From assembly GCA_963693365.1 (NCBI GenBank), contig CAVNZM010000008.1, positions 10,565,172 through 10,629,171 of the forward strand: a stretch of 64,000 nucleotides of DNA, given 5' to 3'. The position numbers and the translations under genes were made by a program. Source of the DNA: Amoebidium appalachense. Taxonomy: Eukaryota; Protista; Ichthyosporea. The notes beneath the pieces were generated by a model that saw nothing but the letters and a program-made list of their open reading frames with translations, was not told the origin of the DNA and did not search any database. Positions 12,014 through 61,588 of this stretch are shown here, piece by piece; within the stretch, counting starts at the first letter, position 1; the number at the start of each line of letters is the position of its first letter.

Positions 12014-15000
12014 TCACTTTATGGTGAGGCATTGGTTGACCACGTCCAGCAGGTGGTTGTTTTCTAGAGCCGCAGCCACTCTCTCCTTGTCGGCAAGCTG
12101 CTTGTTCACTGCGCGGGGGGGGGGGGGGGGGGGGGGGGGGGGGAGGGGGGGGGGGGGGGGGGGGGGAGGGAGGGAGGGGGGGGGGGGTGTGTGTGTGTGT
12201 GTGTGTGTGTGTGTGTGTGTGTGTGTGTGTGTGTGTGTGTGTGTGTGTGTGTGTGTGTGTGTGTGTGTGTGTGTGTGTGTGCCTGCGCGTGTGTAAAAGC
12301 CTGCATGCATGGGTGCGTGCACCATGCTGGAAAAAAAAAAGTATGGCAAACCATCTCAAGCATGCAGCAGCACCCAAAGTGCACCATGGGATGCACAGTA
12401 ATACGGTTGGTAGCTTGAACGCAAAGTGGTGATGGAGGGTGGGGGGGGGGGGGGGGGGGGGGGGGGGGGGAGGGGGGAGAGGAGGGAGGGGGGAGGTATG
12501 GCAGAATTTCTATCAGAATATCGCCCAACCAGTTTAGAACTAACGGAGGAGGGATCGTTGGACACGTATGGCTGGTGAACTGGGGAACACAACAGCCCTC
12601 GTCCGGGGTTTTTATGGGGTGGCGGGGGAGGGGGGGGGGGGGGGGGGGGGGTTGAATGCGTCAAAAAGTACGAAGTACACAAGAACAAACGGATAACACG
12701 ATGCAGAGGGCAGAGGGGGGGGGGGGGGGGGGGGGGGGGGGGGGGGGGGGGGGGGGGGGGGGGGGGGGGGGGGGGGGGGGTAAGTGCCTTGGTTCTCTGA
12801 AGCGTGTGTGCCTGGTCTGACCTTGATGTCCACCTGCAGGGGATAAAAAAAAAGGAAAAAAACACAAGATTTAGCAAAAACATTGAAATAATGAGACAGA
12901 GAAAATGATCAATATGTCAGAAACCGAAGGAGGGATCAATAGAATCTGCAAATCAAGGAAAAACCAACCCGCATATCACATAATGCCCCCTCCCCTCACC
13001 CCCCCCTCCCCCCCCCCCCCCCCCCCTCCCCACACACACCACCTCGCCACCACCACCCACCCACCCACCCTAAACCCAAGTACACACACCTGCCCTTTCA
13101 CCACTACTATAACATCGACCTCCTAGCTCAGAGACGAAAGAGAAAAAACACGTGCCCCCCCCCCCCCCCCCCCCCCCCCCTCCCCCCCCCCCCCCCCCCC
13201 CCCCAAACCCACCCATCCCCTCCCAGAAATAAGACAGAGGGAGAAAGAGAGGGATATACACACAGACACACACAATTCACCCTCCTAACCCCAATTGCAA
13301 ATGAAATGCAAGCGAACAGATCATCGCTGGGGGCGGGGGGAAAGCAGGGGAGGGGTGGGTGGGGTGTTTTTTTTTTTTTTTTTTTTTTTTTTTTTGGGGG
13401 GGGGGGGGGGGGGGGGGGGGGGGGGGGATTGAAAGTATCAGAGAGAGCGAAATACACACTCACGATAGACAACATAATTTCTATTTTTGCAAAGCACACA
13501 CAAAGCTGGGGAGAAGGGGGGGGGGGGAGGGGGGGTAGAATGCATTATTAAGTACTACTCAGTACACATGCATGACGGACAAAACAATGCTAATTGCAAA
13601 CCACACAAAGTGTATGCATCGTAAGGCACGGGGGTAGGGAGAGGGGGGGGGGGGGGGGGGGGGGGGGGGGGGGAGGGGGGAGGGGGGGGAGAGGGAGGGT
13701 GGGGAGGGGGGGGGAGGGGGGGGGAGGGGGGGGGGGGTAAAGAACCTTGAACCGTGCAGGAAGTGAGCGCAGGAGACGGACACGGATGCTGAGACCGATC
13801 AGAGTGGCCATGGTGCAGTGCGGGATGGTGGGGGTGAACTCGACCTTCACGTAGTTGTGTGCATCGTCCACCTTGTGTGTGTGTGTGCGTGAGAGTGTGT
13901 GTGTGTGTACGTGTGTGTGTGTGTACGTGTGTGTGTGTGTGTGTGTGTGTGTGTGTGTGTGTGTGTGTGTGTGTGTGTGTGTGTGTGTGTGTGTGTGTGT
14001 GTGTGTGTGTGTGTGTGTGTGTGTGTGTGTGTGTGTGTGTGTGTGCGCGCGCGCGCATGTGCCGGGGTGCGCGTGTATGTGCGGGGCGACCGGGTAGACA
14101 GTTTTTTTTTGGTGGTGATGGCGTTAATGGTGGTGGTGGTGGTGGTGGTTGAGGGGGAAGGGGGGGGGGGGGTGGCAACAGCGTGTAGAAAGGGGTTCAG
14201 CACCACTTCCTGGCGCCACCCTCCCCTCCCCCCGTCCCCCCCACCCGTTCACGCGGGGGAGAAGTAACAGGTATGAACGATGCCCCGGAAAATGCACGAA
14301 TAACACCTAAAAACGCCAAGAACATGAGAATCTCACGAAAACAGCCATCCAAAAGAAGCGGTGAAGTGGTTGCTAAATAGGGGGAAGAGGGGGTGGGGTT
14401 GGAGGGTAGTGTTTGGGGAGAAATCGAGTCTTAGAAGCAACAAAGACAGGTGCGAGGGGGGGGGGGGGGGGGGGGGTTAGACAAACATGCACAGCTAGAA
14501 CATGTGAGTGAGTGAGCCAGAGTGTGTGTACGCCCGGCCGGGGGGGAGATAATGGCGTGTGCCTGTTTTATGTCTGTGTTTGTGTGTTTGCTTGTGTGTG
14601 TTTGTGTGTTTGTGTGTATGTGTGTGTGTGTGTGTGTGTGTGCGTGCGTGCGTGTGCGTGCGTGTGTTTTTTTTTTTTTTTTTTTTTTTTTTGGGGGGGG
14701 GGGGGGGGGGGGGGGGGGGGGGGGGGGGGGGCACATACCTCGATGTGTTTCAGCTGTGTGACGTTCAACTCCTCAAGTGTGACGGGGTGTTCGGGGTCGT
14801 TGATGTTCCGTATCATGTCTGCAGGCACACATAACAGTAAATTATTAGCGAAGGTATTTTGGTCCTAAACCATTCACTCGTAGTGGGGAGATCTCCAATC
14901 CAAATAAGCTCAACTTGAGCGCAGATGTTTTCAGTCTAAATTGACTCAGTGTTAGTCTGCACGGAATGGTGCCCATAGGTTCCTTCAGACAACACGCAAT

Positions 15001-16642
15001 GCACTCCGACACAACCATATCAGAGGCTACCCTTAAGGGAAAAAACAACCACACATACAAACACACACAAACACAAAGCATACGAGGATCCCCCCCCCCC
15101 CACCCACCCACCCACCCACACACGCACACACTCCCCCCCCCCCCCCCCCCCCCCAAACAGGCACACACACACACACCGCCCCACCCTAGACACATACACA
15201 AAAGGGCACAAGTCGCCAACCAACCCAACACCAACACCGTCGTTTCTATCTTTCCCATCATCCCAAGCAAGGTGTACCATCTATCACCACAACCTCGGTC
15301 CGAGGGCATTCTCAAGAGATAAATGTAAGTCCTCCTCCTCCCACTCTTCTCCCCCCCCCCCCCCCCCCGCCCACCTCCCTCCCTCCCTCCTTCCCCCCCC
15401 CACAAAAAAAATACACATACATACACCCATCTCCTCTCCCCCCCCCACCCCCCCCCTCTACCTCCCCCCTCATTTTTCTTTCCCCACGATTGGCAACCTG
15501 TTGGTCTTGAAGGGGGGGGGGGGGGGGGGGGGGGGGGGGGGGGGGGGGGGGGGGGGGGGGGGGGAGGGGGGGAATCAATATAAAGGGTGGGAAAATTTTA
15601 CACACCACAAACATACACATCACAGAATCGAGCACAAGCAAATGAGTGAACATTTATAAGTTGCGTGAACAAGTGAAGGCAGGGGTTTTCTAAATATATG
15701 AACGCCACACCTGCACACATATCTACACACAAAAGCACCAGGCTAAGTACACAAACCAAGCAGATGCACATGTGCACATGCCACACACGCACACACACAC
15801 ACACACACGTGCACGTGCACACGCACGCACGCACACACGTACACACACCCACACACCCACACCCACACACAAACACACACACCCACACCCACACACACAC
15901 ACACAAGCACGCATGCAAACCTACGTTGACAAGTCAAACACACAAGCTAATGAAGCCAACACATGCACACTACCCACATGCACGCACGCACAAGCCTACA
16001 CACACACAGCACACACACACACACAAACACACACACACACGCGCGCGCCATGCACAAGCATACACACACACACAACACACACACACACACACACAAACAC
16101 GCGCGCGCGCGCCTAAACCTCGCAGGAGCACACCACACACGCGCCAGCATAGATGCACGCACACACGCACACGCACACAGCCAAAACACACGCACACACA
16201 CACACAAATGCATGCACACACACACATAGACACGAACAGTTATAACCCCACACACGCACAAGCATGCAGGCACACACACACACACACACACACACACACA
16301 CACACACACACACACACACACACACACACACACACACACACACACACACACACACACAGAACAGACACACACGCGCACACACACACACACACACACACGC
16401 ACACACACGCGCGCACAAACACAACACACACACACACACACACACACACACACACACACACGCAAGCACACACACACACGCTAACACGCACATACGCGCG
16501 CGCACGCACACACCAACTCACCAAAAACCTCTCTGTTGTCAATGGGATCATAAGCTTCATCATCCAGCTCCCCAGCAGTCACCTCCCTCTCAGCTGCCAC
16601 AGCGTACAGCTGAGGGGCAGCGTTTTCCAGCGGCTTCGTCAT
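12014..16642 (-). CDS. CIAO2B: Cytosolic iron-sulfur assembly component 2B (FAM96B/MIP18), 155 aa, 5 exons
   Basis: Exons 16642-16522, 14818-14739, 13871-13746, 12833-12788, 12108-12014 (468 nt). Contains the signature motifs [38 protein letters not shown] and [17 protein letters not shown]. Intron 4 needs a GC donor. Confidence 0.95.
12651..13625 (-). repeat. Repeat family A fragments in CIAO2B introns (12651-12714 clear; 13430-13505 and 13538-13625 degenerate)
   Basis: 12651-12707 is essentially identical to 61320-61376 (GTTGAATGCGTCAAAAAGTACGAAGTACACAAGAACAAACGGATAACACGATGCAGA). Confidence 0.7.
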
Positions 16643-61004: not shown

Positions 61005-61319
61005 CTGTTGTGGCTACGAATTGGGGTGGTTGACACGGTGACGGATTGGATGTGAGGAGCGGCTATGAGTAAAGGGTTGGGATTCAGTGTGTGTGTACAC
61101 GTGTGCGTGTGTCTGTGTGTGTGTGCGTGAGCGCGGATGGATAGATGGATATATCGGAGGAGGGATATCTCGGGATTGACCTAATGCTACTATTTAGGAA
61201 ATTTCAGTGTAGTTTTGTAATTTCGCCACTAGGCCTAAGTTATCCGGATATTTCACTTTCTAGTTCCTCCAAGTTTCTGGTTTTTTTTTTTTTTTTTTTT
61301 TTGGGGGGGGGGGGGGGGG

Positions 61320-61588
61320 TTTGAATGCGTCAAAAAGTACGAAGTACACAAGAACAAACGGATAACACGATGCAGAATGCAAGCCATACATAAAGAGTAT
61401 GCATAATAAGCAGAGCCCATCCTCAGGGGGGGCCCACGTCATCCACAGTACCCGAGTTTCGACCTATTCACCTCGTTAACGAAACCCAACTCAGATACTG
61501 TTTCACTTGAATATGGGTGGGTCACCCGTCTTTATCAGAGACGAGCAGGGTTGCTTATGCAGGCAAGGGCAGTGGGAAAGGCCGGGGG
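61320..61588 (-). mobile_element. Repeat family A, head plus one unit (inverted relative to 59873-60140)
   Basis: The reverse complement is nearly identical to 59873-60140 over about 270 bp. Confidence 0.8.

Follow-up and report, generated by a model that had tools for sequence, protein, structure and literature searches.

A dispersed repeat family with sense-only copies in ichthyosporean introns, probably a Penelope-like retroelement

In the window analysed here, a 64-kb stretch of DNA, we identified a dispersed repeat family far above chance, with about 21 insertion blocks found by self-BLAST, nhmmer and a covariance model. All 17 of its intronic blocks, spread over 8 introns of 5 genes, are sense to the host gene. 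The repeat is probably a Penelope-like retroelement. Our full account is more tentative: the high-copy family may be a non-autonomous Chlamys-type Penelope-like retroelement whose intron sense bias arises at insertion. An earlier note on this DNA had described a family with well over a dozen copies, every intronic one of them sense, and both observations hold. It had also suggested an undescribed system. Here the anatomy appears to fit a described kind, the Chlamys-type Penelope-like elements, and would not make an undescribed class, whereas we found no report of a bias this strict.

Copies, host genes and insertion anatomy

The longest copy (61320..61680, minus strand), a member of subfamily A with a C-run at each end, sets the minimum element length at 361 bp. 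Its head, previously put at about 160 bp, is at least 250 bp, and summed contig depth is still high up to ~61670. The single unit type described earlier is present as four 111-bp units with C5 joints; the family as a whole, in contrast, has three 3' bodies, which tell apart subfamilies A (~105 nt), B (~135 nt; members at 37301, 24245 and 60179) and C (23753-23958 and 22675-22752). Copy ages span 70% to 100% identity. As a control, the best unit-profile matches on the reversed window reached E=0.04-0.06.

The plus-strand F-box gene has an intron at its stop codon (59199..60952), with an acceptor at 60952 used in RNA-like contigs and a donor predicted from the sequence. Three plus-strand copies lie sense within it: a 5'-truncated subfamily A copy with 97% identity to 61321-61589 (59871..60140), the 3' part of a subfamily B copy (60179..60263) and an older A-like unit, ~76% identical to young A (60334..60436). 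The longest copy adjoins the 3' exon of this gene, outside the intron, and is antisense to it as its nearest gene; the resulting inverted pair, 59871/61589, is tail-to-tail with a host exon between.

The plus-strand bHLH-PAS gene carries a subfamily A unit starting at the GGGGCCCCC motif (33500..33610, intron 33404-34482), a partial tandem of the four 111-bp units behind a short head piece (36776..37250), a subfamily B copy (37301..37448, intron 36282-37585), and, in intron 37654-38354, a young A unit with 99% identity to 61321-61421 (37858..37959) and an A copy with its head motif duplicated internally (37989..38209). All are on the plus strand and sense, as is an old unit within the 3' UTR (40117..40224). 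A further plus-strand subfamily A copy (41252..41400) lies ~260 nt past the end of the bHLH-PAS RNA contigs and is co-oriented.

On the minus strand, intron 1 of the YEATS gene holds five sense copies: subfamily B (24245..24379); subfamily C between two C-runs, with a homologous head and the core CUGAUGA (23753..23958, motif 23876-23918); the 3' part of another C copy (22675..22752); an A copy of ~80% (22515..22641); and an old partial unit (22296..22370). The copy at 23753..23958 is absent from the earlier list. CIAO2B, also sense to its minus-strand copies, has an old unit (13538..13625) and an old partial unit (13431..13505, E=9e-5) in intron 3 and, in intron 4, a 3' tip with 56 nt identical to young A between two C-runs (12652..12713). 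An old minus-strand copy of ~70% with its head present (2040..2242) lies sense in a predicted intron, probably intron 1 of PQLC2. Weak old remnants on the minus strand (62801..62968) lie just past the Tim8 poly(A) end and are co-oriented with Tim8; the remnant at 62923-62968 had E=5e-5 before seeding, and that at 62812-62836 had E=1.3.

The host gene identities given earlier stand. Pfam supports YEATS, HLH, PAS, F-box, Tim10/DDP and PQ-loop, and CIAO2B, two short exons of which have no Pfam match, is identified from exon translation and from a family resemblance. The best match of one host-gene protein is from Sphaeroforma arctica (44%). Two bHLH-PAS introns, one ending at 37585 and one spanning 37654-38354, are spliced out in RNA-like contigs of two runs; runs X6 and X10 are taken as RNA solely since their contigs are spliced, one of them ending in poly(T) at 63029. 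The CIAO2B, YEATS, PQLC2 and bHLH-PAS 33404-34482 introns are modelled from translation alone.

The copies share a common 3' end at a C-run, have ragged or truncated 5' ends and include partial tandems. Among 16 non-self BLAST matches, 12 end at reference position 356-361, and the remaining four have diverged or B-type bodies. The 5' starts vary from reference 92 to 305. Downstream of 15 of the 17 intronic blocks, C makes up at least 60% of 25 nt, in keeping with the (C)n or (CA)n targets of the Chlamys/Naiad type. Target duplication was not seen at the copies, where it is unreadable in a C microsatellite, and neither was an empty site. No inverted truncated copy adjoins a 5' end among the 21 blocks; such copies are frequent, not obligatory, in the Chlamys/Naiad type.

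The family appears to be very abundant. In run X4, summed contig depth on the element reaches up to 1.1e6, against 38-92 on unique contigs, and it is high in the diverged run X12 too. Such depth does not equal copy number, bins of low-complexity G-rich sequence themselves reach 5.6e5, and the window may itself derive from X4. Subfamily B has the highest summed depth of the subfamilies (1.1-1.4e6). Depth in X4 drops toward the 5' end of the element, from 976k to 728k and 352k, the last bin being partly masked.

Sense orientation relative to host genes

The hammerhead core words described below lie on the strand that is sense for the host. Counted per gene, 5 of 5 are sense (p=0.06), or 4 of 4 when PQLC2 is left out (p=0.125). 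We sought missed antisense copies in the window with five extra profiles and an unfiltered covariance model, and no antisense intronic match was among those listed; unit profiles gave only chance-level antisense matches in introns, with E above 1. Outside introns, three of four copies are co-oriented with the adjacent transcript. The sole antisense copy is 61320, the youngest long copy. The earlier note had used the minus copies near 2100 and 61320 as further support, placing the latter beside Tim8. The former probably does lie sense in PQLC2, whereas the latter is antisense to F-box and its tie to Tim8 is lost: plus-strand F-box RNA-like contigs reach 61270, one carrying 33 letters more, and the Tim8 poly(A) end at 63029 is 1.35 kb away.

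Element-free intronic C-tracts number 39 sense and 38 antisense, and thus target supply fails to explain the sense bias. C-tracts adjoining an element were 23 of 60 in sense-genic, 0 of 38 in antisense-genic and 4 of 31 in intergenic sequence; since a single insertion lies against two tracts, these counts are inflated. Within 49.8-56.2 kb none of 15 tracts adjoins an element, the interval 49.5-56.8 kb being intergenic by assumption. Two of the co-oriented non-intronic copies lie past a transcript end, where splicing cannot select, and we count them for insertion bias. Against the account of bias at insertion stand the antisense orientation of the youngest long copy and the clustering of copies in few genes.

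A mechanism of this kind may be outlined. An autonomous Penelope-like element elsewhere would provide the reverse transcriptase and a nickase. Through its C-rich end the RNA would anneal to a nicked G strand and be copied, mostly incompletely. The G strand might be used mainly where it serves as the template in transcription of a gene; this would make the copies sense and leave few of them at a distance from genes. A sense 3' body that is nearly AG-free would bring no splice acceptors into an intron, and copies could persist there.

The close rival is purging, which we regard as possible: the same Penelope-like element would insert both ways, and selection would remove antisense intron copies for being A-rich and carrying CAG acceptors and poly(A)-like signals. 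Over 21 copy segments, which are related and non-independent, the sense/antisense counts are 18/103 for YAG, 4/86 for CAG, 0/42 for GCAG and 3/31 for poly(A)-like hexamers, and modelled host acceptors end in CAG in 22 of 23 cases and in GCAG in 13. The 3' body is nearly AG-free on the sense strand, units A and B having 1 AG each (P=0.04 and 0.01 against shuffles), and the one antisense copy lies outside an intron. There is also a precedent in the Alu sense bias near exons, which the relevant passages of PMC3088655 attribute to cryptic antisense-strand acceptors; this makes the contrast that had been drawn with L1 weaker than claimed. However, AG is not depleted in the full 360-bp copy (14 observed, 15 expected), a fragment as short as 56 nt is still sense, and purging alone does not predict the under-use of intergenic tracts. 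Pure purging is further weakened by the 16 YAG per kb that host introns tolerate on their sense strand. The earlier alternatives of a non-autonomous mobile element and of purged antisense copies are thus both live, and the bias survives the control for target availability.

It is also conceivable, though quite unlikely in our judgment, that there is no genome-wide bias and that a few founders seeded same-strand local clusters through C-run nesting or local duplication. The five genes with their p=0.06 would allow this, as would the bHLH-PAS-local subfamily (33505, 36807-37246 and 41294), whose blocks are 88-95% alike, and a C-run common to several blocks. Yet three subfamilies across the whole range of ages are all sense, and the young subfamily is spread over three genes (12652, 37858 and 60035) and is sense in each.

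The element itself

The Penelope-like reading draws on the fixed 3' end, 5' truncation, tandems, C-rich flanks, depth, a half-core motif and the Chlamys literature. Against it stand the missing adjacent inverted copy, target duplication and empty site, and the lack of any reverse transcriptase or nuclease among 55 spare frames of the window compared with Pfam. An element of the Chlamys/Naiad type would have an autonomous partner with the same 3' end that encodes a Penelope-like reverse transcriptase and a GIY-YIG nuclease.

The half-core motif (61420..61461, minus strand, in the longest copy) has C-GAAAC, a 30-nt spacer and CUGAnGA, the core words thus standing in type II (permuted) order with a spacing of 30-31 nt. 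It has 3 matches against 0.02 expected and is retained in the diverged subfamily C. The 111-bp tandem units have CUGAGGA and lack GAAA. No canonical hammerhead was found by type I and II descriptors in 9 copies of subfamilies other than C on both strands. A type II hammerhead combines the two core words with three helices and an NUH site; here a putative fold of that kind would have a helix II of 4-6 bp only after two extra bases, a helix I of 3 bp and an unpaired helix III base, and pair counts for the named structure are not above shuffles or slid controls (433 of 500 shuffles were as high). The Rfam search suggested earlier gave no family match at gathering score and no type II hammerhead match; Hammerhead_1 reached 16.4 bits against a cut-off of 34 (E=0.5), and subfamily C gave nothing relevant.

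A bolder reading, which we consider unlikely, is a host-transcription-dependent intron retroelement that would insert only into template G-runs of active genes, be acceptor-free and excise itself from the pre-mRNA or lariat by a type II-order hammerhead. Such self-excision would give a cluster of 5' ends at the motif, where 10 of 18 starts fall (reference 240-262).

The earlier description of the repeat as structured holds for its modular build only. Folding z-scores of -1.2 to +1.3 give no folding signal, and RNAalifold on 12 units returned 19 pairs, 1 of them changed on both sides. Strict sense orientation and a motif spacing conserved across three subfamilies would suit an intron-encoded RNA or splicing module selected by the host, as proposed before. 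This now seems highly improbable, given the lack of an Rfam family, of a conserved fold and of pair counts above controls, the ragged 5' ends and the very high abundance. Copies sit 74-3095 nt from the donor and 137-2240 nt from the acceptor with no fixed distance to either, and others lie in a 3' UTR and past transcript ends. The evidence on ends, fold and family match likewise gives no support to an intronic snoRNA or other structured ncRNA. Spread as part of the pre-mRNA, also suggested, could not by itself orient insertions at other loci and would need target bias or later selection.

Other classes were considered. An introner forms a whole intron with splice sites at its own ends, and the copies here all lie at least 74 nt inside larger introns. 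A SINE was rejected: ARAGORN gave 0, no tRNA-, 5S- or 7SL-type Rfam match appeared up to E=10, and the tail is poly(C). Alu, a SINE, derives from 7SL and ends in poly(A). An origin from 5S, tRNA or box C/D RNA, judged by motifs, was dropped for want of a match. A non-LTR retrozyme needs a complete type I hammerhead per tandem unit, and the 111-bp units lack GAAA. Rolling-circle (HUH) elements are compatible with one fixed and one ragged end and with tandems. A non-autonomous element of the Helitron/Replitron type, entering transcription-exposed single-stranded DNA, could be imagined, and orientation-specific insertion at targets without target duplication is described for HUH elements in passages of PMC10288648. 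We hold it to be very unlikely: the target is a C-run and not AT, TT or RG, there is no terminal hairpin signal and no short terminal direct repeat beyond the C-runs, and the hammerhead core words suggest that the element passes through RNA. Exact-motif scans of viral contigs, metagenome contigs and prokaryote genomes found no locus.

Significance and comparison with known systems

Target choice and target opening by Penelope-like elements are not yet understood, and the Chlamys paper itself asks for a test system. A family of thousands of copies on a strand-asymmetric target would allow a direct genome-wide test of orientation against transcription, and orientation by copy age would separate transcription-coupled insertion from purging. 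A strict sense rule, if true, would reverse the pattern that L1 and LTR elements show in animal introns. Activity of the type II-order hammerhead, if true, would be an unusual feature for a retroelement of eukaryotes, the hammerhead literature assigning type II to prokaryotes, and types I and III to animals and plants; the self-excising reading would place a Penelope-like family of this kind among the unicellular relatives of animals. Should the bias disappear genome-wide, what is left is an ordinary repeat family that lacks annotation. Our literature search, of partial coverage, listed neither a report of a Penelope-like family with sense-only copies nor one of such elements in ichthyosporeans, for which one literature supplement does not list Chlamys/Naiad elements.

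The metazoan non-LTR retrozymes and minimal hammerheads of Penelope-like elements (PMC7229834, PMC4209133, 10.64898/2026.07.22.740005) resemble the repeat in being non-coding, 100-400 nt long and tandem, with hammerhead words, and they are probably moved by Penelope machinery; an extra base after the core is noted for the Penelope-like hammerheads. They differ in having a type I hammerhead per unit, against type II order here and a 111-bp unit without GAAA. They are also reported to be depleted from frog introns, whereas copies here are enriched in introns. Human Alu near exons shares an intronic sense bias and cryptic acceptors on the antisense strand; as excerpted from PMC3088655, the Alu bias is partial and confined to a zone 20-200 bp from exons, whereas the bias here is complete in the sample and extends to copies up to 1.5 kb from the nearest exon.

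Some Naiads carry a 'half core' according to passages of PMC8557442. This 'HHR_half_core' has CUGAnGA with a GAAA half at a distance on either side and no descriptor-conform fold, as here; its spacing is 35-50 nt rather than 30-31 nt, and Naiads are animal elements that target (TA)n.

The closest likeness is to Chlamys elements, for which the same source describes 5' truncation, partial tandems, (C)n targets and no canonical hammerhead. Chlamys-N4_cRei and MRC1 (PMC8557442, PMC9977147, PMC9940879) share with the repeat the (C)n target, partial tandems, intronic location and lack of a canonical hammerhead, and heavy 5' truncation in non-autonomous Chlamys gives insertions of ~100-150 bp with target duplication unreadable in the microsatellite. 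For a Chlamys pair, the preprint excerpt (10.1101/2022.05.23.493040) gives a median insertion length of 128 bp, with every insertion in an intron and at (C)n. The corresponding passages of the published study (PMC9977147) call the intronic pattern broadly consistent with the target distribution, the 'more than expected' of the preprint being gone. The family here differs in its ichthyosporean host, and its likeness is one of anatomy without a sequence link. The Chlamys passages cited here mention no host-gene orientation bias, whereas the repeat in this window is sense in 17 of 17 intronic blocks.

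Host genes and anatomy of the repeat

The window is intron-rich eukaryotic DNA, dense in (CA)n and G/C homopolymers. The gene models for PQLC2 (minus strand), YEATS (minus), bHLH-PAS (plus), an Na/H exchanger (minus; closest homologue in Sphaeroforma arctica, 44%), F-box/LRR (plus) and Tim8 (minus) are backed by exon translation and Pfam. A further minus-strand gene, which we take to be CIAO2B, is named from exon translation and a family resemblance. From the exchanger match, a single protein, an ichthyosporean source of the DNA is probable. The contigs of sequencing runs X6 and X10 are spliced, as expected of RNA: in bHLH-PAS, individual records pass over the intron 37654-38354 and leave window sequence at the acceptor near 37585. 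Other records start at 60952 and carry more than 800 further letters from outside the window, while DNA contigs continue across this position, which supports the F-box acceptor. All remaining introns are modelled from translation only.

Several other features of the window were noted. Merged G or C tracts of at least 8 bases number 129 in 64 kb, many of them 30-70 long, an extreme amount of potential G-quadruplex DNA. Weak donors (GTTCTT, GTACAC, GTGTGC) are common among the models, often with a C- or G-run after them; CIAO2B intron 4 has an apparent GC start at donor 12787 (minus), and the F-box intron 59199-60952, whose acceptor is supported by the RNA-like contigs, falls within the stop codon (TG|A), provided that its donor has been inferred correctly. 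Two copies of the CIAO2B first exon and of the DNA before it lie some 1.8 kb from each other (16514-16708/18372-18563 and 17250-17368/19016-19117; 86% and 71% identity), and the upstream exon copy, with ATG and donor kept, may serve as an alternative first exon or be a relic. In bHLH-PAS, a perfect 28-bp triple repeat at 33395-33482 presents the exon end and donor three times, and one intron holds a distinct 108-bp direct repeat pair (35786-35893 and 36047-36153, 85%). The last YEATS exon (19690-20466, minus) is long and rich in K, E and D, and its start resembles the DEK C-terminal domain; Pfam gave no match for 55 of its residues. A membrane-protein gene at 47064-49440 (plus) has a weak LCCL-domain match under the cut-off (E=0.0013). 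Two MITE-like elements lie at 32438-32723 (inverted ends of 41 bp at 93%) and about 52170-52630 (a shorter inverted pair flanking an internally repetitive stretch).

The poly(C)-flanked repeat forms about 21 insertion blocks totalling about 3.2 kb, as traced by self-BLAST of the masked window, unit and head profiles and a covariance model. Its longest copy (61320-61680, minus), with a C-run on either side, serves as reference. Among the 16 other BLAST matches, 12 have their 3' end at reference 356-361, immediately before the C-run, while 5' starts spread from 92 to 305. One block is a partial tandem, a short head piece followed by four 111-bp units. The 3' bodies are of three types: A, B (37301, 24245 and 60179) and C (23753-23958 and 22675-22752), the last linked to A through the head and a shared motif. 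Identity among copies ranges from about 70% to 100%. The 3' terminal motif also has three short matches, with no recognisable body, upstream of the CIAO2B first-exon copies (16923, 16997 and 18819, minus).

Summed contig depth in run X4 reaches 1.1e6 at element positions, against 38-92 on nearby unique contigs. For subfamily B it reaches 1.1-1.4e6; such sums are not copy numbers, and low-complexity G-rich bins also reach 5.6e5. Element depth is also high in the diverged run X12. X4 depth drops toward the element's 5' end (976k, 728k, 352k, the last bin being partly masked). As some element positions have as many as about 120 variant contigs, these depths suggest thousands of copies.

Orientation relative to host genes

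The earlier note had claimed that every intronic copy runs in the sense of its host gene, and this is borne out: in the window all 17 intronic blocks, across 8 introns in 5 genes, are sense (p=1.5e-5 per block, 0.008 per intron, 0.06 per gene), and among the matches listed no profile (unit, head, extra profiles or covariance model) gave an antisense intronic one at E<1. Dropping the PQLC2 intron, a predicted model, leaves 16 blocks, 7 introns and 4 genes, with a per-gene p of 0.125. It is quite improbable that the apparent bias is small-sample clustering.

Since a C-run is a strand-asymmetric target, we tested target supply as the source of the bias. Element-free C-tracts within introns are 39 sense and 38 antisense. 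Counting subfamily C and UTRs, an element adjoins 23 of the 60 sense-genic tracts, none of the 38 antisense-genic tracts and 4 of the 31 intergenic ones; the Fisher values (3e-6 and 0.015) are both too small because a single insertion often adjoins two tracts. Between 49.8 and 56.2 kb, presumed to be intergenic, none of the 15 tracts adjoins an element.

Outside introns, block 40117 lies sense in the bHLH-PAS 3' UTR, block 41252 is co-oriented with this gene about 260 nt past the end of its RNA contigs, and weak remnants that follow closely on 63029, where Tim8 has its poly(A) end, are co-oriented with Tim8. The copy at 61320 is the exception. It had been counted in support of sense orientation; however, F-box RNA contigs extend to 61270, one with 33 letters more, and thus the copy is antisense to its nearest gene. 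The sole transcription that would run in its direction is read-through from Tim8, 1.35 kb off. With these corrections, the observation holds for introns.

A hammerhead-like motif

The suggestion that the element is an intron-encoded structured RNA or splicing module was not sustained. Rfam gave no match at gathering score, folding z was -0.88 for the full copy and -1.2 to +1.3 for its parts, and distances from copies to splice sites are unconstrained; among 12 aligned units, one of 19 pairs changed on both sides. A host module is thus scarcely credible.

Hammerhead_1 matched weakly (16.4 bits against a cut-off of 34, E=0.5). The motif, C-GAAAC followed after 30-31 nt by CUGAnGA, occurs three times against 0.02 expected, twice in A and once in the diverged C, and the loose ends 5' of B carry a GAAAC word at the same spacing. 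Its words stand in type II hammerhead order. A helix II of 4-6 bp is possible given two extra bases after the core, and helix I has 3 bp before it. The hammerhead fold is unproven, since no complete ribozyme turned up when 9 copies of subfamilies other than C were scanned with a type I/II descriptor, pair counts over 8 rows were no better than in shuffles (433 of 500 equally high), and helix III is unpaired at its base. The words nevertheless fix which strand is the RNA strand of the element, namely the host sense strand. In a list assembled by hand and by eye, 10 of 18 5' starts fall at reference 240-262; either predicted self-cleavage or microhomology of an internal C7 with the target would explain this cluster.

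Origin of the sense bias and comparison with known elements

Host transcription requires a sense source copy, yet it does not set the orientation of offspring at new loci, and we infer that target asymmetry or selection is needed. Several observations speak for selection that purges antisense intron copies, for which the part of PMC3088655 consulted offers Alu as a precedent. Over 21 related segments the antisense strand is rich in acceptors (CAG 86 against 4 sense, GCAG 42 against 0) and has 31 poly(A)-like hexamers where the sense strand has 3, and CAG closes 22 of the 23 host acceptors modelled. However, AG depletion is limited to the 3' bodies (P=0.01-0.04) and absent from the full copy, host introns already hold 16 YAG per kb, even a 56-nt fragment is sense, copies past transcript ends are co-oriented too, and the 15 tracts between 49.8 and 56.2 kb are empty. 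These observations favour a bias at insertion, with purging a less likely but close rival. We tentatively propose, at somewhat under an even chance, that a C-rich RNA end would prime on the G strand, which would be used chiefly where an active gene has it as template, and that the AG-poor body may be an adaptation allowing copies to stay. Measured by the criteria in the consulted portion of PMC10288648, an HUH element is very unlikely.

The element probably works like a non-autonomous Chlamys and is a candidate member of that group; 55 spare frames of the window held no reverse transcriptase. For the Penelope-like elements Chlamys and Naiad, the sections of Craig et al. (PMC8557442) consulted report 5' truncation and partial tandems, Chlamys targets of (C)n and (CA)n with unreadable target duplications, and no canonical hammerhead, a half core being found in 8 Naiads. 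The element shares with Chlamys the C-run target, 5' truncation, partial tandems, intronic copies and lack of a canonical hammerhead. In Chlamydomonas mutation-accumulation lines, according to the consulted text of the preprint 10.1101/2022.05.23.493040, two Chlamys elements, one autonomous and the other not, produced insertions with a median of 128 bp, every one in an intron and at (C)n, at a rate above expectation; the corresponding text of the journal version (PMC9977147) finds them only consistent with target supply, and neither text reports their host-gene orientation. MRC1 is a further non-autonomous Chlamys (PMC9940879, in part). In the portions seen, PMC11244446, on one ichthyosporean genome, does not mention Penelope, and PMC3088659 records type II hammerheads from bacteria and archaea. 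Retrozymes carry a type I hammerhead per unit (excerpts of PMC7229834 and PMC4209133) and are reported as kept out of introns (10.64898/2026.07.22.740005, in part), whereas the element has type II word order and intronic copies.

What raises the element above an ordinary repeat is its complete sense bias independent of target supply and its permuted hammerhead words. Neither is described in the part of the literature searched, outside Dfam and Repbase, though supplements to the preprints could hold data on orientation. We read the element as most likely a variant within the Penelope-like kind, set apart by its sense bias and hammerhead words.
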